From: Polyangiales bacterium
GTDB taxonomy: Bacteria; Myxococcota_A; Polyangia; Polyangiales; Polyangiaceae
Reading direction: 5' to 3'
Assembly: GCA_038231275.1 (NCBI GenBank)
Contig: JBBRLQ010000004.1
Span: forward strand, 192,001-256,000
DNA length: 64,000 nt
The translations under genes were made by a program, and so were the position numbers. Positions 27,610-37,442 of this stretch are shown in pieces. Positions within the stretch are counted from its first letter, which is position 1, and each line of letters begins with the position of its first letter. The notes under the pieces were generated by a model. The model was not told the origin of the DNA and did not search any database. It saw nothing but the letters and a program-made list of their open reading frames with translations.

Positions 27610-28185
27610 TCAGATGCAGGTGTGACCGGTCGGCGAGGCGCACGCGCCGCCGCCGCCCGCGAGCGACACGCAGCAGTTGCTCGTGCAGTCGGAGCTCGAC
27701 GAGCAACCGGCGTGGCACGCCCCGTCGTCGCTCACGCACTTCTGACCCTGCGGTCCGATGCCCGCGCCGGACTGGCAGCACTGGGACGTGGTCGTGCAGT
27801 TCCCGCCGGGTCCAGAGCATTGGCCGCCGCTGCTGCTGCCGCTGGTGCCGCTGCTCGAGGCGCCGCTGGTGCCGCTGCTCGAGCTGGAGCTGCCCGGGCA
27901 CGCCGAGCTGCGCTTGGTGCACGACGACGTGTCGCTCTGGTTGAAGCACTTGTCGAGCGCGCCCTGGTTCGGGCAGTCGAAGTAGTTGTTGTTGAGCCCG
28001 CAGCAGAACGCGCTCGAGCCGCTGGAGGAGCTCGACGAGCTGGTCCCACTCGTGCCGCTGCTGGTCCCGCCGTTGGAGCTCCCGCTGGTGCCCCCGCTCG
28101 ACGAGCCGCCGGTGCTGCTGGTGCTGCTACACGCGAAGACAGCGAAAGACATGGAGAAAAGGGCCACGATGACTTTGGAACGCAT
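27610..28185 (-). CDS. Ser/Gly-rich, Cys-rich lipoprotein with knottin-like units
   Basis: lipobox VFAC; 18 further Cys in three 6-Cys blocks. Confidence 0.8.
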   Translation of the reverse strand: MRSKVIVALFSMSFAVFACSSTSSTGGSSSGGTSGSSNGGTSSGTSGTSSSSSSSGSSAFCCGLNNNYFDCPNQGALDKCFNQSDTSSCTKRSSACPGSSSSSSGTSGASSSGTSGSSSGGQCSGPGGNCTTTSQCCQSGAGIGPQGQKCVSDDGACHAGCSSSSDCTSNCCVSLAGGGGACASPTGHTCI

Positions 28186-28376
28186 GGGCGACGACCTCGT
28201 TTCGAGTGGATTTCGAGCCGGGACAGCCATGTGCAGTCTCGCTGCGCACGATGGTCCCACCTTTCAGTATGGACACGCACAATCCCACCCGTAGCGTTCC
28301 AAGTCAACCGTAGCGGCGCATTTTCTCGCGTCGGCTGGCTTTCTTCGAAGGGTTCCGGAGCGTTGCCTCGCGTGCT

Positions 28377-29153
28377 ATGAGCAGGGCCATGGAACCGGGC
28401 AGCACAATCCAGCTCAGCGGTAAGGTCGCCATCCTGACCGGCGCTAGCCGCGGGATCGGCGAGGCCATGGCGCGCGCGTTCGTCCGCGCAGGCGCCAAGG
28501 TCGTGCTCGCCGCACGCAAACCCGAGGGTGTCCAGGCGGTGGCCGCGTCGCTCGGCGAGAGCGCGCTCGGCGTCGCGGCACACACCGGCAAAGAGTCCGA
28601 CTGCGTCGCGCTCGTCGACGCGGCGATCAAACATTTCGGCAAGGTCGATCTCCTCGTCAACAACGCGGCGACCAACCCGCACTTCGGCCCGATGCTCGAC
28701 TGCGAGATGGGCGCGTTCGACAAGACCTTCGAGGTGAACCTCAAGGGCTATTTTTGGATGATCCGCGGCGTCGCGAGGCACCTGCAGTCACGCAATGCGC
28801 CGGGCGCCATCGTCAACGTCGCGAGCGTCGCCGCGCTCGAGGCCGCGCCGATGCAGGGCGTGTACGGGATGACGAAGGCCGCGGTGGTGTCGATGACCAA
28901 GACGCTCGCGTACGAGCTCGGCGGTTCCAAGATCCGCGTCAACGCGATCGCTCCGGGCCTCGTCGACACGCGCCTCGCGAGCGCGATCGTGCAGAACGAA
29001 GACCTCGTGAAGATGGTGAAGGCGAAGACCCCGCTAGGGCGGGTCGCGCAGCCGGACGAGATCGCTGGCGGAGCGGTCTACCTTTGCTCCGATGCTGCAA
29101 ATTTCTTGACGGGACACACACTTGTGATCGACGGAGGGTTGACCGTCTGCTAA
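28377..29153 (+). CDS. short-chain dehydrogenase/reductase (DHRS4-like)
   Basis: TGASRGIG, NNAATNP, YGMTK, NAIAPG, IDGG. Confidence 0.93.
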   Translation: MSRAMEPGSTIQLSGKVAILTGASRGIGEAMARAFVRAGAKVVLAARKPEGVQAVAASLGESALGVAAHTGKESDCVALVDAAIKHFGKVDLLVNNAATNPHFGPMLDCEMGAFDKTFEVNLKGYFWMIRGVARHLQSRNAPGAIVNVASVAALEAAPMQGVYGMTKAAVVSMTKTLAYELGGSKIRVNAIAPGLVDTRLASAIVQNEDLVKMVKAKTPLGRVAQPDEIAGGAVYLCSDAANFLTGHTLVIDGGLTVC

Positions 29154-29189: not shown

Positions 29190-30689
29190 ATGGAGTCGGG
29201 GCAGACCATCGCGGGTAAATACCGTCTCAACCAGCTTCTGGGGGCTGGAGGGATGGCGTCCGTCTGGTCGGCGACCAATATGTTCACCGAGCGCCAGGTC
29301 GCGGTGAAGTTCATGCTCCCCGCGGTCGCTCGGACGCAAGAGGCCGCGCGCCGCTTCCTGATGGAAGCGAAGGTCACAGCGCGCATCGATCACCCGAACG
29401 TGATCGAGATCATGGACGTCGGCCAGACCGAGGACGGGACGCTCTTCCTCGTGATGGAGCTGCTCACGGGCGTGTCGCTCGAGACGGCGCTGAAGCGGCA
29501 ACAGCCGACGATGACGCTGCACGAGTTCTGCTTCGTGATGATCCAGGTCGCGCGTGCGCTCGTGGCGGCGCACAAGCGCGGCATCATCCACCGCGATCTG
29601 AAGCCCACGAACATCTTCCTCCACAAATCGCGCGACGGCGTCGCGGTGCCCAAGCTCCTCGACTTCGGCGTCAGCAAATTCCTGGACGACGAGGGCAGCA
29701 AGAACCACGCGCTCACCGTCGCCGGCACCGTGCTCGGCTCGCCGCTCTACATGAGCCCCGAGCAAGCGCGCGGCGAGAACGACATCGACGGCCGCACCGA
29801 CATCTTCGCGTTCGGCGGGATCATGTTCGAGGCGCTGTGCGGCACGCGCGCGTACGACGGCGCGAACTTCAACCAGCTCATCGTCGCGATCGCGACCAAG
29901 CCGCCGAAGGACATCGAAGAGATCGCGCCGCAGATGCCCGAGGTGCTGCGCGAGGTCGTGCGCGTGTGCCTCGTCTCCGAGCGCGACAAGCGCGTGCAGT
30001 CTTTGGACCCGGTGGCGGAGCGCTTGCTCGCCGCACTGCCGGATCTCGAGCACTCGGGGCTGCGGCTCCCCTCGCCCGCCGGATCGAGCGCCGATCCCGA
30101 CGCGACGAACGCGCTGCCCGTCGTGAGGCCCAGCGACCGTCCGCCGCCGCTCTCGCTGTCCGAGGGGGGCGGCACGCACACGCCGTGGGCCACGCCATCT
30201 GGCATCGCGACGCAGACGGTGAACAAGCGCCGCCAGCAGCAGAACGGCATCATCGTCGCGATCGCGGCGGCGGCGGCGGTGTTCATCGTCATGGCGGTGG
30301 GCGTGGTCGCGGTGCTGAAGCTGCGCCGCGCACCCGCCACGCCGGCGACGACCCTGCCGACCACTGCCCCGCCGCCCTCGCCGCCGCCGCCCTCGCCCAC
30401 CACCGACGACGGCCCCCCGGTCATCAACGTGGACTCGCTCCCGATCGCCAAGTCCGGCTCCGGCGCCGCGCGCGGAATGGGGCGCCTCACGATCGTCGCC
30501 GAGGGGTTCTTCTGCAGCGTGTCGATCGACGGCAAACCTTTGGGGACCACGCCGATCGCCCAAGTGACGGTGCCGGCGGGGACACATCACCTCAAGTGCG
30601 AGCCGCCGTCCGGCAAGGTCCGCAACGCGACCGTCGTGGTGGCGCCCGGGAGCGACGCGACGCTCTACAAATTCCCCGCCAACGAGTGA
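29190..30689 (+). CDS. Hanks-type Ser/Thr kinase with TM helix and PEGA-like C-terminal domain
   Basis: GAGGMA, VAVK, HRDLKPTN, DFG, MSPEQ; TM; SIDGKPLGTTPI. Confidence 0.93.
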   Translation: MESGQTIAGKYRLNQLLGAGGMASVWSATNMFTERQVAVKFMLPAVARTQEAARRFLMEAKVTARIDHPNVIEIMDVGQTEDGTLFLVMELLTGVSLETALKRQQPTMTLHEFCFVMIQVARALVAAHKRGIIHRDLKPTNIFLHKSRDGVAVPKLLDFGVSKFLDDEGSKNHALTVAGTVLGSPLYMSPEQARGENDIDGRTDIFAFGGIMFEALCGTRAYDGANFNQLIVAIATKPPKDIEEIAPQMPEVLREVVRVCLVSERDKRVQSLDPVAERLLAALPDLEHSGLRLPSPAGSSADPDATNALPVVRPSDRPPPLSLSEGGGTHTPWATPSGIATQTVNKRRQQQNGIIVAIAAAAAVFIVMAVGVVAVLKLRRAPATPATTLPTTAPPPSPPPPSPTTDDGPPVINVDSLPIAKSGSGAARGMGRLTIVAEGFFCSVSIDGKPLGTTPIAQVTVPAGTHHLKCEPPSGKVRNATVVVAPGSDATLYKFPANE

Positions 30690-31507
30690 CCGTGGGCGAG
30701 GGCGAGATCCAGCGGATGATCGCCGAGGCGTGCCTCGCGGCGGGCTCCGAGGAGGAGTTCACGAACGATCTGCGCGGCTTCCTCACGCGGCACGGCGTGC
30801 CCGCGAAGGACATCGAGGCCATCGTGGCCGCTCCGCCTCGCCTCTCGCTGTACCGACGGCTCGTGCGCGGGAACGTCGCCGGGGTCACGCAGCGGATGAT
30901 GCCGCGAACGCGCGCGCGCCTGAACGCGGCGGGCGGCCTCTTCGACGCCTCGTTCGATAGGTTCCTCGAAGAGCGGGCGCCGCGAACGCACTACCTCCGC
31001 GACGTGCCCTCCGAGTTCCTCGCATGGGTCGCGCCGCGGTGGCGCGCGCAGAAGGAGGTCCCTGCATACGCGGCCGATCTCGCGGCGCACGAGGTCGTCG
31101 AGTTCGAGATCTGCGCCGCGCCGGTCCCGGCCGATCCGCCGCCGCTTGGCGAGGTCGCGCTCGATCGCGCGCTCGTCTTCACCGACGCCAAGCGCGTGAT
31201 GCGCTACGCGCACGCGGTCCACCTGCTCCCGGCCGACGAGGACGATCGTACGGCGCCCGATGCGCGCGACGTGACGCTGCTCGTCTACCGCGACGACGAG
31301 CACGCGGCGCGCTTCCTCGAGCTGAGCCCGCTGGCCGGCGCGATCGTCACGCACCTCATCGCAGGCGAACCGCTCGGCGCAGCGCTCGGCGCGGCGTGCG
31401 CAGCGCTGGGCTTCACCCTGGGCGACGCGATCCTCGCCGACACCGCTCGTCTGCTCGCGGATCTCGGCGATCGCGGCGTCCTCCTCGGCGCGCGTCCGAA
31501 CACCTGA
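30686..31507 (+). CDS. DUF2063-family MNIO partner protein (HvfC/BufC-like)
   Basis: GTGA overlap with kinase; RLSLYRRLVRGN, PRT, PSEFLAW, DLAAHE, LLVYRD; adjacent to DUF692. Confidence 0.8.
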   Translation: MTVGEGEIQRMIAEACLAAGSEEEFTNDLRGFLTRHGVPAKDIEAIVAAPPRLSLYRRLVRGNVAGVTQRMMPRTRARLNAAGGLFDASFDRFLEERAPRTHYLRDVPSEFLAWVAPRWRAQKEVPAYAADLAAHEVVEFEICAAPVPADPPPLGEVALDRALVFTDAKRVMRYAHAVHLLPADEDDRTAPDARDVTLLVYRDDEHAARFLELSPLAGAIVTHLIAGEPLGAALGAACAALGFTLGDAILADTARLLADLGDRGVLLGARPNT

Positions 31508-31513
31508 GCGCGG

Positions 31514-32365
31514 TCACACCGCGATCTTGTTCGCGCGGGCGGTCGACGCGACCCAGATGCGCTTCAGCGTCGCCACTTCGGCGAGCAGCGCGTCCAGCGG
31601 CGGGATCGCCTGATCGCGCTCGAGGAGCACCGGCACCGGTCCGGTCTTTTCGAGCACGCGCCCGAGCAGCGCCAGCACCGGATCGCACACGTCGGCGCCG
31701 TGCGTGTCGACGATGACCTTGCCGCCCGGTCCTTCGTCGAACCACTCGTGACCGGCGACGTGCATCTGGACGACGCGATGCATCGGCACCGTGCGCATCC
31801 ACTCGTCGACGTCGAAGCCGAAGTTGACGCCGTTCACGTACGCGTTGTTCACGTCGAGCATGAGCCCGCAGTCGGCGCGGTCGCACAGCTTCGCGATGAA
31901 CTCCGCCTCCCCCATCTCCCTCTCGCCAGGGTGGAGGTAGAAGCTGATGTTCTCGACCGCCATCGGCACGCCGAGCGCATCCTGCGCGCGCCGCACGCGA
32001 TCGGCGACACGGCTGACGGCCTCGTCGGTGAAGCGAATCGGCAGCAAATCGTGGAGGATCCGCCCCTCCGCCGAGCCGAAGCACAGGTGGTCGGAGTGGT
32101 GCGGGCTTCCGATCTCGCGCACGAACACCGCGAGCTCGCGCAAGTACGGCTCGTCCAGCGGCTCGGTGCCACCCAGGGACATCGTCAACCCGTGCGTGAG
32201 GATCGGATACCGATCGCGCGCCCGCGAGAGCGCGTTCGGGTAGTACCCGCCGCGCTGCATGTAGTTCTCCGGAGAGACCTCCAGAAAATCGATCTCGGCC
32301 TTCGCGTCGCGAGCCAAAAGCTCGTCGATGAACTCCCAGCGAAGGCCGAGACCGACACCGTTCAC
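31514..32365 (-). CDS. DUF692 multinuclear non-haem iron-dependent oxidative enzyme (MNIO)
   Basis: GVGLGLR, PENYM, HGLTMSLG, SDHLCF, HDLLP, ENIS, LDVNNAYVN, HVAGH, DTHG, LERD. Confidence 0.95.
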   Translation of the reverse strand: MNGVGLGLRWEFIDELLARDAKAEIDFLEVSPENYMQRGGYYPNALSRARDRYPILTHGLTMSLGGTEPLDEPYLRELAVFVREIGSPHHSDHLCFGSAEGRILHDLLPIRFTDEAVSRVADRVRRAQDALGVPMAVENISFYLHPGEREMGEAEFIAKLCDRADCGLMLDVNNAYVNGVNFGFDVDEWMRTVPMHRVVQMHVAGHEWFDEGPGGKVIVDTHGADVCDPVLALLGRVLEKTGPVPVLLERDQAIPPLDALLAEVATLKRIWVASTARANKIAV

Positions 32366-32371
32366 GTGGTG

Positions 32372-32809
32372 TTACTTCTTCTTCGCGTCGGCCGAGCAGG
32401 TGCCCGCGCCGCACGAGGCCTGCGTGCCCGCCGGCTTCTTGCCGGGGGTCATCGCCGGCTTCTTGCCCGGGGTCGTCGGCGGCGTCGGCGTGGCCGTCGC
32501 GGCGGCGGCCTTGGGGTCGGTCGTCGGCGTCGTGGTGGGCGTGGTCGTCGCGGCGGCACCGGTGCCGGGCGCGGTCGGATCGGCCGGCTTCGCGTCCGCG
32601 GCCTTGCCCTTGTTCGCGCCGCAACCGGCGGCCGAGCACGAGGCGGCGGGGGCCGCGGTCGGGGTGGTCCCGGCCGCGGGCGCCACCTCGGATGAGGTCA
32701 CAGGGGAGGCGGGCGCGGGCGGCGGCGCACCGCCGCAGGCGACGAGAGCCGTCGTTCCGAGGGCGGCGAGCGTGCTGGCGAGATTCTGCAAAGACAGGTT
32801 CGGTCGCAT
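32372..32809 (-). CDS. putative MNIO substrate: lipoprotein precursor with two SC-x4-C motifs
   Basis: AGGAG RBS; lipobox LVAC; ASCSAAGCG and ASCGAGTCS; stop 6 nt before the DUF692 start. Confidence 0.8.
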   Translation of the reverse strand: MRPNLSLQNLASTLAALGTTALVACGGAPPPAPASPVTSSEVAPAAGTTPTAAPAASCSAAGCGANKGKAADAKPADPTAPGTGAAATTTPTTTPTTDPKAAAATATPTPPTTPGKKPAMTPGKKPAGTQASCGAGTCSADAKKK

Positions 32810-32832: not shown

Positions 32833-33645
32833 TCAGTTGGCTCCGGGGGTGGCCCGGAAGTCGATGCTCACGTCGGCGACATCCGCCACCTTCGTACCCA
32901 AGAGTCCAAGAGACTTCGTCGCGAGCTTCCCGAACGTGTCGCGAGGCTTTACGTCGTGCTCGGCGAGGGTAACCCGAAGAGGCGTCTTTGACTTCAGCTC
33001 GATGAAAATAGGCTTCGAGTCGGCCGGCGCACCAGAAGGGTAATGTAGGCGGGCTTCCAGCAGAGCTTCTCGGTTTTCGACCTTGTGGCCGTGGAGAAGG
33101 AAGTCCCCTTTCGCGGTCAGCGTGACGACGCGCACGTCGTCGCCGTTCTCCTTGATGGGCGCGACCTTGCTCGCGTCGGTGGTCGTGCCCGGATCGACCG
33201 AGCGAATGGCGTACACAGCCCAGCGGTTGGCCGCCTTCTCTTCGGGGCTCGCCGCCTCACCGACCTCCATCCACGTGAGCGCATGCTTCGTCTGCGCCGC
33301 GTCGTCGTCGTTGCCGAAGGTGTGGGTCGAAAGCGTCGACACGTCGACCTTCACCTCGCCGCGCGTGTTCGCGAGGTTCGCGAGGTCCACGTCGACTTTG
33401 CCGCCCGCGGCCTCGGTGATGGCCTTGATGTGCTCTTTGGGGGCCGGCATGTCGACCGACGTCTTGCCCTTCGGGTCGATCGCGAAGGAGACCGTCTTCG
33501 CGGACGGCGTCGCGATGGAGGCCGCGAGGGAGCTCGCCACCGGTGCGATCGCGACCGGCTCTTCCTTCGGGCGCATCGCGAGCCATAGGCCCCCGACCAC
33601 CACCAACCCCGCTGCCGCCCCGATCGCCAGAGACTTTCCGTTCAT
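32833..33645 (-). CDS. YceI-like protein with N-terminal membrane anchor
   Basis: N-terminal TM; GKVDVDLANL..GEVKVDVSTL; AKGDFLLHG; GGAGG RBS. Confidence 0.7.
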   Translation of the reverse strand: MNGKSLAIGAAAGLVVVGGLWLAMRPKEEPVAIAPVASSLAASIATPSAKTVSFAIDPKGKTSVDMPAPKEHIKAITEAAGGKVDVDLANLANTRGEVKVDVSTLSTHTFGNDDDAAQTKHALTWMEVGEAASPEEKAANRWAVYAIRSVDPGTTTDASKVAPIKENGDDVRVVTLTAKGDFLLHGHKVENREALLEARLHYPSGAPADSKPIFIELKSKTPLRVTLAEHDVKPRDTFGKLATKSLGLLGTKVADVADVSIDFRATPGAN

Positions 33646-33747
33646 CTGTCCTCCGCCCCTGCCTACGTGCCGGGGGTGCCGGTGGTTTCGCCCGTTCGCG
33701 TGAGAGCTGAAATTACAGGCATTTGCGTCGTGTGGGCCCAAAATTTT

Positions 33748-35232
33748 TCAGAGCGCGGCGGCGAGGCGCTTCAGGGCCTCGCGGAGCTCGGCGGGCGTGA
33801 GCTGCGCGAAGCCGAGGCGGACGAAGGGACGCGCGCGTCCGTCGAACGTGAACGCCCGCGCCGTCTGCATGAGGACGCCTCGCTCGAGCGCGCGGGCGGC
33901 CCACGCTTCGGGGCTCACGTCGGGGGCGACGCGCGCCCAGATCGCGGTGCCACCGGCCGGGGTGGTGAACGTGAGCACGTCCCCGAAGCGTTGGCGCAAG
34001 CCGCTGACCAGCACCTCGCGCCGTTCCATGTAGGCGCGTCGGACGCGGCGCACGTGGCGGCCGACCTCGCCGTCCTCGAGCAGCTCCCCGACGGCGTCCT
34101 CGATCGCATGGTCCCCTTGGCGATCCATGTAGCGGCGACGGGTGACGAGGCGCTCGATGACCGGGCGCGGCGCGACGACGTAGCCGATGCGAAGGCCCGG
34201 CGCGAGCACCTTGGAGAGCGTGCCGACGTAGACGACGACCCCCGACTGATCGGCGCTCGCGAGGGGAAGGACGGGGCGGCCGTCGTAGTGGAACTCGTGA
34301 TCGTAGTCGTCCTCGATGACGACGAAGCGCTCGCGGCGCGCGAGGTCGAGGAGCGCGAGGCGGCGCGCGGCGTCGAGGGTGACGGTCGTGGGGTACTGAT
34401 GATGAGGCGTGACGAAGACGGCGCGAACGGGACCGGCGGCGGCTTCGGCGACGCGCGCGGCGAGGGCGGTCATGTCGAGGCCGCCGTCGTCCACCGGCAG
34501 CGGGACGATGCGTGCGCCGGCCGCGCGGAACGCCTCCCACGCGGGGCGATAGCCGAGGGCCTCGACGACGACGACGTCTCCTGGCGTGAGGAGCGAGCGC
34601 GCGAGGAGATCGAGCGCCATCTGGCTTCCGCGCGTGACGATCACCGTGTCCTCGCGCGCGGCGAGACCTCGCGTCGCCGAGAGCATGCGCGCGAGGCCGA
34701 CGCGAAGTCGCTCGGCGCCGAGCGGATCGCCGTAGGTGAGGAGCGCGCGGCCGTTCGTGCGAAGTGAGCGACGGAAGGCGCGGGCGAGCGGCGCGGTGGG
34801 CATGAGACGGACGTCAGGCACTCCGCCCATCATCGAGAGCACGTCGCGTCCAGGAATGGGGACGTCCGCCCATGCGCGCTCGAACGGGGGAAGGTCGAAG
34901 CCGACGCGCGCCGGGATCTCCTCGCGAGGCGCGGCTCCTTTCGCGAAGCGACGTGGCGCGACGTCGGGGAGCGCCTTCGACACGAAGGTGCCGCGCGCGG
35001 CCTCCGTCGTCAGCCAGCCCTCGGCGACGAGCTCGCGAAACGCCGCGATGACCGTATTGCGGTGCACCCCGAGCGCGCGCGCGAGCTCTCGGGTGCCGGG
35101 GAGCGCGTCGCCTGGCGCGAGGCGGCCTCGTCGCACGTCTTCGGTGATGGCGCGCGCGATGCGGAGAAAGAGCGGCGCGCGGCCTGCGGGATCGGCGGCA
35201 GGGACGGCCAGGGGCATCGACCAGGTGCGCAT
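33748..35232 (-). CDS. MocR/GabR-family regulator (GntR HTH plus PLP aminotransferase-like domain)
   Basis: LPGTRELARALGVHRNTV; TPHHQYPT; IEDDYDHEF; GTLSKVLAPGLRIGY. Confidence 0.93.
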   Translation of the reverse strand: MRTWSMPLAVPAADPAGRAPLFLRIARAITEDVRRGRLAPGDALPGTRELARALGVHRNTVIAAFRELVAEGWLTTEAARGTFVSKALPDVAPRRFAKGAAPREEIPARVGFDLPPFERAWADVPIPGRDVLSMMGGVPDVRLMPTAPLARAFRRSLRTNGRALLTYGDPLGAERLRVGLARMLSATRGLAAREDTVIVTRGSQMALDLLARSLLTPGDVVVVEALGYRPAWEAFRAAGARIVPLPVDDGGLDMTALAARVAEAAAGPVRAVFVTPHHQYPTTVTLDAARRLALLDLARRERFVVIEDDYDHEFHYDGRPVLPLASADQSGVVVYVGTLSKVLAPGLRIGYVVAPRPVIERLVTRRRYMDRQGDHAIEDAVGELLEDGEVGRHVRRVRRAYMERREVLVSGLRQRFGDVLTFTTPAGGTAIWARVAPDVSPEAWAARALERGVLMQTARAFTFDGRARPFVRLGFAQLTPAELREALKRLAAAL

Positions 35233-35285
35233 TCCACTGGTCTACCGATTCGTGGAAATTTTGCCACGTTCAAAGGACCAGGTGC
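35219..35285. promoter_or_regulatory. candidate MocR operator region
   Basis: GACCAGGTGC direct repeats at 35219 and 35276; TTCCAC...GTGGAA inverted pair between them. Confidence 0.4.
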
Positions 35286-36430
35286 CCTGTCGCGATCGCA
35301 CGAACGACGCCCGCCAGCGCGCCCGCAGCGAGTGGCCACAGGGGATTACTGCGTGGAAATGCGACACGCAGTGCTGCGCACACGATGACGATCGCGGCGT
35401 CGTCCCACGCGTGGACCGACGCGCGGCCGAGTGACAACCCTGCCGCGGCGATGACGCCGACGACCGCGGGCGCGACGCCGCGCAAAAATCCTTGGACGAC
35501 TCGGTTCTCGCGGAACGCCGCCAGCGAGCGGGCGGCCAGGAGCGCGAGCACAGTCGGCGGCGCGAAGACGCCCAGCGTCGCGGCGAGCGCACCGAGCGGA
35601 CCGGCCGCACGCCACCCGACGAACGTGGCGGTCGTGGCCACCGGTCCCGGAGTGATCTGCCCGAACGCGACCGCGTCGGCGAACGCGCGCGCGTCGATCC
35701 ATCCGCGCGCGACCGCCTCGTGCTCGATCGCGGGCACCATCGCAATCCCGCCGCCGAACGTCGCCACGCCGATGCGCGCGAAAACGCCGAACACCGCCAA
35801 CGCGATGGGCAGGCTCCACGCGACGACGAGCGCGGTCGCTGGAGGCAGGAGGACGAGCGACATCGGACCGGGCATCGACGGCGGCCGAGGCCTCGCCGAC
35901 ACCGCGCCGACGACGCCCGCGATCGCGATGACCTCGATGAGCGTGAGCCAGCGCGCGGCGAGCGCGATCGTGGTCGCGAGCGCGATGAGCCACCCACGCA
36001 GATCCTTGAGCGTGCTCCTCGCGAGATCGACGGCGATCGCGACGAAGAGGCCGGCGACCGCGGGGTTCAGCCCATCGAGCGCCGCACGAACGCCGCGCAT
36101 TCCTTGCAAGACATCGTAGTACGCGGCGATCAGCGCGATCATCCCGCAGCCCGGAAGGATGAAGACGCCCGCGGCGACGAGCGCACCGACCACGCCCTTC
36201 AAGTGGTAGCCGACGAGGACGAGGAGGTTCGTGACCATCGTCCCCGGCAGTGCGCCGGCGACGGCGACGCGCTCCACGAACGCGTGCTCCTCCATCCACC
36301 CGCGCTCCGCCACCATGACGCGCCGCATGCGCGCGATCGCCGCGAGGCCGCCGCCGAACGCGACGGCCCCAGTCACCAGCGCGACCTCCGCGAGCGCGCG
36401 GAGGCGTACGGAGGGACGCGCGTCGGGCAC
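35270..36430 (-). CDS. chrA: chromate ion transporter (CHR family, long chain)
   Basis: two halves: AFGGG..ALPG and TFGGG..QITPGP; start uncertain. Confidence 0.88.
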   Translation of the reverse strand: MPDARPSVRLRALAEVALVTGAVAFGGGLAAIARMRRVMVAERGWMEEHAFVERVAVAGALPGTMVTNLLVLVGYHLKGVVGALVAAGVFILPGCGMIALIAAYYDVLQGMRGVRAALDGLNPAVAGLFVAIAVDLARSTLKDLRGWLIALATTIALAARWLTLIEVIAIAGVVGAVSARPRPPSMPGPMSLVLLPPATALVVAWSLPIALAVFGVFARIGVATFGGGIAMVPAIEHEAVARGWIDARAFADAVAFGQITPGPVATTATFVGWRAAGPLGALAATLGVFAPPTVLALLAARSLAAFRENRVVQGFLRGVAPAVVGVIAAAGLSLGRASVHAWDDAAIVIVCAALRVAFPRSNPLWPLAAGALAGVVRAIATGHLVL

Positions 36431-36452
36431 GCCCCGGTTTACACCGAACCGC

Positions 36453-37442
36453 TCAGAATTTCGCCTGCGCGAAGACGCACGCGGCGGGGTTGCCGGCGGC
36501 CGGCTTGTAGTCGACGGAATCCTTGTAATAGACGCGCGCGAACGCCGAGTCCCAGCACTCCGACACCTGCACGTTGGACACGGTGGTCGGCAGGTTGCCT
36601 CCGGTGAGCTGCGCGTCGCCACGGCCGGCGCCGCTCTGATCCCAGCGGCTGTGGAGGACGATGTCGTCGGCTTTGTCGTTCTGCGCGGGATCGGCGCCGT
36701 CGTGCAGCGTGATGTCGACCGCGCCCGAGCCGTCGCCCTGGTGCGTGACGCCGACCTTGGCGGCGCGCGGGCGATCGGTCGCGGTGAGGTCGACGGCGAG
36801 CGTCGCCGGGTACTGGCGAAGATCAAACGCGACCTTCACGTTGCCGGAGTCGTGGCTGCGCGCCGGATCGAGCCGCGACGACGCGTCGAAATCGAGCGTG
36901 AAGCTTCCCTGACGATGCTCGGCGCGCGAGCGGCCGAAGCCGTGACCGGTGAGGACCGCCTTGAAGTCCGCTTCGCTCGTCGAGCCCTTGGCCCGCCCTT
37001 CGAGCGCGTAGTCGTACTCCTTGTCGCCCACCTCGTTGACCGTGAAGCGCCACACCACCGGCGAGAGGGCGTCGCCTGCGCCGGGACCCCACACCGCCTT
37101 GTGCGGCTCGATCGTCGTCGCGGGCGTGTGCACGATCGTCCACACGAGGCCGATGACCCACGCGGTGCCGTAGTCGACGGTGTCGGTGATGTCGCGCGTC
37201 ACCTGGTAGTACTCGGCGTAGCTGCTGGTGCCGCCGCCGCCTGCCGGCGTGTTGGAGAGGTGGAGGACCTGGCCCTGCGTCTTGGTCGGCGCGCCGGTGG
37301 TGGAGCCGGGGACGCCCATGCCGACGTCGGCCGACTGCGGGATCGGATCGCGGAAGCGCTCCGAGTCGTCCGCCTTGATCGTGCACGCGTTCGAACCGCC
37401 GACCACCGCGCCCAGCATCAAAAGGCCCATCCACTTGCTCAT
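36453..37442 (-). CDS. hypothetical lipoprotein, beta-rich
   Basis: signal peptide with SNAC; GGAG RBS; C-terminal SRW..GAGRGDA..ECWD. Confidence 0.8.
   Translation of the reverse strand: MSKWMGLLMLGAVVGGSNACTIKADDSERFRDPIPQSADVGMGVPGSTTGAPTKTQGQVLHLSNTPAGGGGTSSYAEYYQVTRDITDTVDYGTAWVIGLVWTIVHTPATTIEPHKAVWGPGAGDALSPVVWRFTVNEVGDKEYDYALEGRAKGSTSEADFKAVLTGHGFGRSRAEHRQGSFTLDFDASSRLDPARSHDSGNVKVAFDLRQYPATLAVDLTATDRPRAAKVGVTHQGDGSGAVDITLHDGADPAQNDKADDIVLHSRWDQSGAGRGDAQLTGGNLPTTVSNVQVSECWDSAFARVYYKDSVDYKPAAGNPAACVFAQAKF

Follow-up and report, generated by a model that had tools for sequence, protein, structure and literature searches.

The locus described here lies in a stretch of 64,000 nucleotides (nt) from an uncultured Polyangiales bacterium (GenBank assembly GCA_038231275.1, contig JBBRLQ010000004.1, positions 192,001 to 256,000 of the forward strand), which is referred to below as the window. 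It comprises the gene for a small cysteine-containing lipoprotein, the gene for an iron enzyme of the MNIO (DUF692) family and the gene for a DUF2063 protein. An earlier note on this DNA had described it as a locus for a peptide made by the ribosome and altered post-translationally (RiPP) whose substrate is a lipobox protein, and this description held up. The features that carry the argument are listed with their coordinates in the window; locus labels of the type L001 are our own.

32372..32809, minus strand: precursor lipoprotein open reading frame (ORF), 145 amino acids; G+C content at third codon positions (GC3) 0.92, ribosome-binding site, conserved homologues.
32735..32809, minus strand: predicted signal peptide ending in the lipobox LVAC (residues 22 to 25, with Cys25 as the putative lipidated residue), from pattern and alignment.
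32684..32704, minus strand: PVxxxEV motif just past the lipobox; consensus PVxAxEV in the precursor alignment, present also across the precursors of relatives.
32618..32644, minus strand: internal motif ASCSAAGCG, residues 56 to 64 (Cys58 and Cys63), read from the sequence.
32393..32419, minus strand: core motif ASCGAGTCS, residues 131 to 139 (Cys133 and Cys138), predicted MNIO modification site; invariant columns in the alignment.
32375..32392, minus strand: basic C-terminal tail ADAKKK; Lys145 nearly invariant, with KK or KKK ends in most homologues.
31514..32365, minus strand: MNIO (DUF692), 283 amino acids, HvfB/BufB-like type, from PF05114, NCBIfam scores and the structure 3BWW.
30692..31507, plus strand: DUF2063 partner (PME type 1, HvfC-like), 271 amino acids; PF09836 34.7 bits and PF22106 (NGO1945_C) 40.3 bits, both over cut-off.

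The gene arrangement reported in the earlier note was found as described. An AAAGGAG box stands 7 nt ahead of the precursor ATG, and the six nucleotides CACCAC separate the precursor stop codon from the GTG start of the MNIO gene at 32365 on the minus strand. The GC3 value, the ribosome-binding site and the conservation of the protein led us to reject the reading that GC-rich DNA had produced a spurious ORF. The lipobox, the two cysteine motifs, the duplicated TPGKKPA and the ADAKKK terminus were likewise all present in the sequence. Cys25 is invariant in 29 of 29 aligned precursors; the type of the signal was judged from the lipobox alone. Together with an unusually conserved signal peptide, the PVxxxEV motif may conceivably act as a recognition element for the DUF2063 partner.

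Ala, Thr, Pro, Gly and Lys account for 82% of the 121 residues of the mature precursor, which is predicted to form a disordered stalk of about 100 residues followed by the C-terminal core. The ESM Atlas model of a homologue has a predicted local distance difference test (pLDDT) score of 0.45. TPGKKPA occurs twice, at residues 113 and 121, and the 21-nt copies that encode it differ at one base. This reflects a recent 24-nt tandem duplication (32429-32473, minus strand) coding for TPGKKPA(M)TPGKKPA, which lies in the Lys-rich part of the stalk directly before the core motif. The precursor matched no Pfam model and no NCBIfam model (June 2026 release, E up to 10), and eight other members of its family matched no NCBIfam precursor model in that release at E up to 1.

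A search of a large protein collection returned 107 homologues of the precursor at E <= 0.001, the best of them 53% identical. The few that are named come from Labilithrix, Polyangiaceae or 'Myxococcales' assemblies; one homologue (P0047) belongs to Labilithrix luteola, which can be cultured. The lipobox pattern was present in 102 of the 107 sequences, a CGxGxC at most 10 residues from the C terminus in 103, and the exact SCGAGTC within the last 20 residues in 92. The internal SCSAxxC was found in only 35 homologues; 55 have in its place an HCGA...C context with two cysteines 13 apart. In an alignment of 29 precursors the invariant residues were Met1, Leu14, Gly18, Cys25, Cys133, Gly134, Gly136, Thr137 and Cys138. 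Conservation is thus confined to the C-terminal motif, whose CGxGTC pair is regarded as the conserved core, and the internal cysteines are variable, clade-specific additions. The earlier note had named a lack of conservation of its SC-x4-C motifs beside orthologous MNIO genes as one of the results that would refute its proposal; the outcome is split, as the C-terminal motif is conserved there and the internal one is not.

The substrate motif of the window's family can be written (Q/G)(A/S)SCGAGTC(S/A/G). The precursor family extends to other families of the same order, where the linker is acidic and the tail still reads SCG(A/E/S)GSCGG. The ESM Atlas clusters nearest to a homologue are unnamed, hold 67 to 133 members and are mostly from Myxococcota where a phylum is recorded. 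A scan of 185,579 species (one genome each) with the pattern Q[AS]SCGAGTC gave 33 stretches, of which 23 were confirmed, at 22 loci; this single pattern was taken from an 8-sequence alignment and biases the scan to the window's own subtype. All 22 loci came from assemblies whose labels read Myxococcales, Polyangiaceae, Polyangiales or 'uncultured delta proteobacterium'. The precursor family is conserved, and Myxococcota records are the only ones in which it was seen. The precursors of L027, L011, L021, L028 and L031 contain numerous repeats of the SCG type, such as GQAGSCG, GSCGGAAH and DGSCGAKK. Because these grade towards oxazolin-like repeat proteins, the sequences suggest that single-pair and repeat precursors form one continuum.

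Linkage between precursor and enzyme was examined from both sides. The window MNIO was searched against 61 related genomes, and the 30 best loci, including the window's own, were inspected. Three were set aside because their upstream DNA was too short (<450 nt), leaving 27 orthologous loci. At 21 of these the adjoining upstream ORF has a lipobox and a Cx4C in its last 15 residues. Reading of the ORF printout added one locus with the precursor in two frames (L008) and one with the precursor further upstream (L030), so that the count is 21 to 23 of 27. The N- and C-terminal parts of the L008 precursor (the same locus as L061) lie in different frames, either through a frameshift or through faulty assembly. 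When the search started from the precursor, an MNIO gene stood directly downstream at 16 of the 22 loci; the two sets of loci come from overlapping genome sets and their counts are not additive. In the window's own genome the precursor family is present as a single copy, the one beside the MNIO gene. The upstream lipobox protein is very probably the substrate of the MNIO and its DUF2063 partner, judging from this gene linkage.

The profile search that the earlier note had proposed, with PF05114 and PF09836, placed both proteins over the family cut-offs. The MNIO reached 317.6 bits with PF05114 (cut-off 25, E 7.4e-95) over model positions 1-261 of 263. In NCBIfam it scored 295.2 bits with HvfB (cut-off 360) and 286.8 bits with BufB (NF050167, cut-off 310), and the DUF2063 protein scored 96.6 bits with HvfC (cut-off 142). 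An enzyme of the ChrH, MbnB or ApyH type was rejected, as the scores are far under the cut-offs (74.8 bits for ChrH with a cut-off of 600, and 63.7 bits for MbnB with a cut-off of 325). The window motif, CGAGTC, also departs from the CPxCGxG of the chryseobasin/ChrH type. The closest solved structure is 3BWW (E 2.8e-53). Residues R9, H58, H90, H93, E138, D171, N173/N174, H202, H206, D220, H222, E249 and D251 are invariant in the 27 MNIO orthologues. The His, Asp and Glu motifs align to 3BWW, and the Asp following LLER is likewise invariant in all 27. The conserved His, Asp and Glu residues are taken as the iron ligands and the catalytic Asp, and the active site is intact.

The DUF2063 gene, which the earlier note had called adjacent, is indeed so. 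In addition, it is read from the strand opposite to the MNIO gene, and the two genes converge so closely that only 6 nt part their stop codons; its start codon lies 2 nt past the stop codon of a receptor kinase gene. A short GC hairpin (31509-31523) spans the convergent DUF2063/MNIO stops (31505-31523), where transcripts from opposite strands would overlap. A scan of the region found no promoter-like sites and 3 terminator-like sites, with 3.3 expected, which is the level of chance.

The MNIO-PME1 pairing, the HvfB and BufB models as best matches and 3BWW as the closest structure together point to an enzyme pair of the bufferin/captophorin type. Clusters of the MNIO-PME1 kind are stated to 'broadly install' 5-thiooxazoles, their products bind copper, and 3BWW is placed among them in the same preprint (10.1101/2025.11.18.689057). 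The oxazolin chemistry cited in the earlier note needs updating accordingly, because that preprint holds that the oxazolin structure is to be revised to 5-thiooxazole.

With the captophorins or oxazolin-type systems (HvfABC of Haemophilus influenzae, FonABC of Fontimonas thermophila) the locus shares the MNIO and DUF2063 pair, HvfB as best NCBIfam match and an exported Cys-Gly precursor. The window CGAGTC has the C-G-x-G-x-C spacing that two adjacent xGxCG pentamers would presumably give. In contrast to those systems, EGKCG repeats are absent from the window precursor sequence, which has neither Lys before Cys nor Glu at position 1 and offers only 2 to 4 target cysteines on a long disordered stalk. 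The scores do not reach the HvfB and HvfC cut-offs, the residues at the positions proposed to set specificity are Trp and Gln/Asn/His, and a DoxX gene is missing.

Likenesses to the bufferins Buf1 and Buf2 (BufABC(D), Caulobacter vibrioides; PMC12452194) are the enzyme mega-cluster (BufB 287 bits), the PME type 1 partner, a precursor with signal peptide and a presumed copper role in the envelope. Predicted lipoproteins make up about 16% of Buf2 bufferins according to the same source. However, the DUF2282 and BufA2 models did not match the window precursor, the bufABC order is broken, and no DoxX gene or sigma/anti-sigma pair was found.

On these grounds the product of the locus is probably a ribosomal metallophore of the bufferin/captophorin class that is anchored by lipid. 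Its maturation would begin in the cytoplasm, with precursor cysteines being converted to 5-thiooxazoles by the MNIO, its DUF2063 (PME type 1) partner and O2. The targets would be Cys133 and Cys138 of the C-terminal SCGAGTC and probably also Cys58 and Cys63. The modified protein would then be exported by the Sec system, the lipobox residue Cys25 diacylglycerylated by Lgt, the signal peptide cut off by signal peptidase II (LspA) and the new N terminus acylated by Lnt. The product would be a membrane-tethered, disordered stalk of about 100 residues with a small N/S chelating site at its tip, where copper or another soft metal would be bound in the cell envelope. We infer the ring chemistry, the lipidation and the identity of the metal from what is known of the class.

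Substrate selection can be compared with published work on related enzymes. FonB is reported to favour a small residue after Cys, and substrate choice to be tuned by an N-terminal Arg-Arg pair and by the residue after the catalytic Asp, where the Lys-Cys group has Phe and the Cys-Lys group has Asp (10.1101/2025.11.18.689057). The window precursor fits the first rule, its cysteines being followed by Gly or Ser. At the second pair of positions the window MNIO is best read, from its sequence, as a sister specificity type within the same enzyme group; the positions were mapped by motif alignment to 3BWW, so that their correspondence to FonB numbering is indirect. The same genome holds a second MNIO locus, L001 (G000:C1:497903-501685), with ORFs at 1073-1384 and 1444-2367 of that stretch and a DUF2063-like frame after them on the same strand. 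The 103-residue lipobox precursor of this locus is rich in CKGK and scores 27.5 bits with BufA2 (cut-off 60), and in its MNIO the catalytic Asp is followed by a further Asp. By these features the second locus is a Buf2-like lipoprotein bufferin with a Cys-Lys precursor; the Asp and the Cys-Lys precursor agree with the published specificity rule.

Several observations weigh against assigning the locus to this class of metallophores. Both the MNIO and its partner are under every NCBIfam equivalog cut-off, and Trp replaces the second Arg of the proposed specificity pair in 20 of the 27 MNIO orthologues (Arg-Trp). In 21 of 27 the catalytic Asp is followed by Gln, Asn or His, and no orthologue has Phe there. 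Since both positions differ from both studied groups, the reaction could differ as well. The hydrophobicity of the signal-peptide core is only moderate, and the partner gene lies outside the operon of the enzyme. Three of the 27 MNIO loci (L019, L024 and L025) have no such precursor, and one (L027) has a different one, a Cys-Gly-repeat lipoprotein. Finally, the ORFs scanned nearby included no gene for copper handling, for DoxX or for a metal regulator.

The alternative that survives best keeps the enzyme and the substrate and changes the chemistry: a Cys-Cys cross-link or macrocycle, or an oxazolone-thioamide, would be formed at the C-terminal Cx4C instead of two independent 5-thiooxazoles, in line with what other MNIO subfamilies make at C-terminal motifs of two cysteines. 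In its favour, the core is a C-terminal motif of two cysteines, as in substrates of the chryseobasin type (CPACGMG; PMC13056109), and the enzyme stays under the HvfB and BufB equivalog cut-offs. However, the very low ChrH and MbnB scores given above speak against it, and the combination of a 283-residue enzyme with a PME type 1 partner is one that the preprint ties class-wide to 5-thiooxazoles (10.1101/2025.11.18.689057). We therefore regard a different chemistry as unlikely.

The genes around the precursor, the MNIO and the partner were surveyed in the window and in relatives. Three neighbours are listed here.

29190..30689, plus strand: receptor Ser/Thr kinase; Pkinase 151.5 bits, PEGA 21.6 bits, one transmembrane helix at residues 350-368, PEGA extracytoplasmic.
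32833..33741, minus strand: YceI-like lipocalin, 302 amino acids, with an N-terminal membrane anchor, from model fold and Pfam matches of homologues; the true start is probably M33 at 33645.
28377..29153, plus strand: short-chain dehydrogenase, first gene of a dehydrogenase-kinase-DUF2063 string; adh_short_C2 228.5 bits.

The YceI-like protein of the window itself had no Pfam match, and two of its homologues passed the Pfam YceI model (27.5 and 26.9 bits, cut-off 23.7). Its AlphaFold model (pLDDT 73.8) matches BcnA, YceI and polyisoprenoid-binding proteins, with E values of 8e-8 to 7e-7 and target-normalised template-modelling (TM) scores of 0.66-0.76 for 5ixh, 2x32, 3q34 and 1y0g. The order dehydrogenase-kinase-DUF2063 was found also at L033-L036 and L038; whether the short-chain dehydrogenase is part of the system is uncertain.

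About 15 kb around the MNIO gene were surveyed in 20 relatives. A YceI-like homologue lies upstream on the same strand in 13 of them, and a DUF2063 gene is present at 19 loci, 14 times downstream on the same strand and 5 times convergent. Behind the DUF2063 gene stands a Ser/Thr kinase gene, no more than about 200 nt away at 6 loci and no more than 1.6 kb away at 3 others. The 5 convergent loci are arranged like the window: a kinase gene stands ahead of the DUF2063 gene, on the other strand, although the distance is about 2.4 kb in L034. In all the linked kinases a single membrane helix joins the kinase domain to an outer domain, which is PEGA in the window and resembles formylglycine-generating enzyme (FGE)-sulfatase domains in 6 of 6 same-strand loci tested (from L039-L045 and L047). 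The two copper-binding cysteines of true formylglycine-generating enzymes seem to be missing from these FGE-sulfatase-like tails.

In a maximum-likelihood tree of the 27 orthologous MNIOs, with the second MNIO of the genome as outlier, the 11 loci with convergent order form one clade with 98/98 support, and the convergent order needs one change on the tree. Midpoint rooting was used for the drawing; if the outlier is taken as root, the convergent order would have arisen from an ancestral one-strand order. Relatives outside the clade retain precursor, MNIO and partner on one strand, an order that in this class is often followed by DoxX. The convergent partner gene is accordingly best described, from the tree, as a single, clade-specific rearrangement. 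It makes the window clade an exception to the bufABC order that is called strictly conserved in bufferin clusters (PMC12452194).

In agreement with the earlier note, no gene for DoxX or for an extracytoplasmic function (ECF) sigma factor was found nearby: DoxX and sigma-70 models had no match in 18 long ORFs chosen from positions 18.7-42.7 kb of the window, a selection and not every ORF of that span. The only two DoxX matches of the whole genome are on other contigs. Upstream of the YceI-like gene and on the same strand lie genes for a MocR-type regulator (GntR and aminotransferase domains) and a chromate transporter (ChrA) at 33748-36826 (minus strand), an order kept in the close relatives L033, L036, L038, L053-L055 and L074. 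On the minus strand at 27610-28260, a 216-residue Ser/Gly-rich ORF has a possible lipobox (FAVFAC) and about 20 cysteines in its C-terminal half, and belongs to no Pfam family; L033, a relative from the same genus, lacks it at the corresponding position.

The YceI-like lipocalin and the kinase may perhaps take part in handling or sensing. A more far-reaching proposal, which we put forward tentatively and hold to be rather doubtful, is a five-gene envelope module seen so far only in Myxococcota records. It would consist of the YceI-like lipocalin, the lipid-anchored thiooxazole protein, the MNIO, the PME1 partner and the receptor Ser/Thr kinase. The tethered tip would report metal status to the outer domain of the kinase (FGE-sulfatase-like or PEGA), the lipocalin would bind or move the acyl anchor, and control by the kinase would stand in for that by the ECF sigma/anti-sigma pair in classical bufferin clusters. 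If this is true, the move of the partner gene to behind the kinase gene in the window clade would have placed maturation under the control of the kinase operon.

The same neighbours also allow a reading in which the modified lipoprotein serves chiefly for signalling or sensing, its tip, loaded with metal or not, being read by the extracytoplasmic domain of the kinase and its lipid anchor handled by the YceI-like lipocalin, with no bulk buffering of metal. In most relatives the module is linked to the gene for a kinase that has one membrane helix and a domain outside, the partner gene stands directly behind the kinase gene in the window clade, and one or two cysteine pairs per molecule would give a low buffering capacity. 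On the other hand, myxobacteria have very many such kinases, so that the linkage may be partly fortuitous, and the outside domain of the kinase differs between clades. A role confined mainly to sensing is considered quite improbable.

The earlier note had further raised the possibility that the two cysteine pairs on the flexible stalk clamp a single metal ion; for this the distant pairs 58/63 and 133/138 would have to be brought together by folding of the stalk. Both pairs are present in the window protein and its closest relatives, the linker is flexible, and the Atlas model of the homologue scores low. However, the internal pair SCSAxxC is gone or replaced in 72 of the 107 homologues, and likewise at most orthologous loci beyond the closest clade. 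Six of the 22 precursor copies (L067-L071 and L073) lie in fetched stretches that hold no MNIO gene. The five of these orphans with a clean ORF (L067, L068, L069, L071 and L073) retain both the head and the SCGAGTC tail and lack internal cysteines, so that they carry the C-terminal pair only. At L067 the YceI-like gene is still upstream, and no MNIO gene lies within 2 kb downstream. The joint clamp did not stand up to these counts and is very unlikely.

That the ORF is an ordinary cysteine-containing lipoprotein, left unmodified by the MNIO whose true substrate lies elsewhere, could draw on the orphan copies and on the partner gene being on the other strand, but it is scarcely credible given that precursor-MNIO adjacency is conserved over several families of the order, that for 5 of the 6 orphans the assembly contains a further copy linked to an MNIO gene, and that the genome's own sole copy sits 6 nt from the MNIO gene.

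The novelty of the locus had been overrated in the earlier note, since lipoprotein substrates of MNIOs are in print (PMC12452194, PMC13056109). For DybA and the oxazolin lipoprotein NedA, modification by the MNIO in the cytosol, followed by Lgt/LspA/Lnt processing to a triacylated product, has been shown (PMC13056109, PNAS 2026). The locus shares with these DAG-RiPPs, which are RiPP-lipoprotein hybrids, a lipobox precursor next to an MNIO gene; the motifs of the characterised DybA and NedA differ from its own. Among the lipoproteins that the same paper leaves uncharacterised is 'Cluster X', whose 'highly conserved CxxxxC motif' is proposed there as the modification site; the main text names no taxa and gives no sequences for it. 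Cluster X may well be the window's precursor family, the two being compared by description only.

A second published family, the 'CxxxxC' signal-peptide family of 76 proteins (PMC12452194), resembles the window's in its signal peptide, its conserved CxxxxC and its MNIO and DUF2063 protein. Its clusters contain DoxX and, in 54%, Lactamase_B_2, whereas neither was found among the scanned ORFs of the window. The supplement lists 41 MNIOs associated with this family, mostly under RefSeq accessions, and neither MNIO of Labilithrix luteola is among them. Two MNIOs of L. luteola stand in the genome table of that paper, one of them listed in the supplement only under PME type 1 and the other absent from that file altogether. 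The two 'CxxxxC'-associated MNIOs that could be placed lie in MNIO-DUF2063-DoxX runs of consecutive accessions. As far as the published cluster content and MNIO list allow, the 'CxxxxC' family looks different from the window's family; the two are set apart on this basis and not by sequences.

A full-text literature search returned no paper on an MNIO together with YceI, and for MNIO with CxxxxC only PMC12452194, PMC13056109 and their preprints. For DUF692 or DUF2063 with myxobacteria, no title or abstract on the window's family was found among the matches listed, none of which holds all three terms. The words kinase, YceI and Myxo- are absent from the main text of PMC12452194, and the MNIO literature, in the portions searched, gave no mention of YceI-like lipocalin or receptor-kinase neighbours.

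The locus is thus an unnamed local variant of a recently described, very large class and not a new kind of system. Lipoprotein substrates of MNIOs, and even a CxxxxC lipoprotein cluster, are already known, so that their occurrence here is no surprise for the field. What is new is the lack of DoxX nearby, the conserved YceI-like gene upstream, the receptor Ser/Thr kinase downstream and the single clade-specific rearrangement of the partner gene. The YceI-like and kinase neighbours and the relocation of the partner gene suggest a regulatory and handling logic unlike that of the DoxX/ECF-sigma clusters studied to date. If the assignment is right, the bufferin/captophorin class would extend into the Myxococcota with an unusually simple substrate, in which one invariant Cx4C pair ends a disordered, lipid-anchored stalk. 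Such a substrate would be a convenient minimal model for how MNIO-PME1 enzymes pick their cysteines and for how few thiooxazoles make a working metal site.

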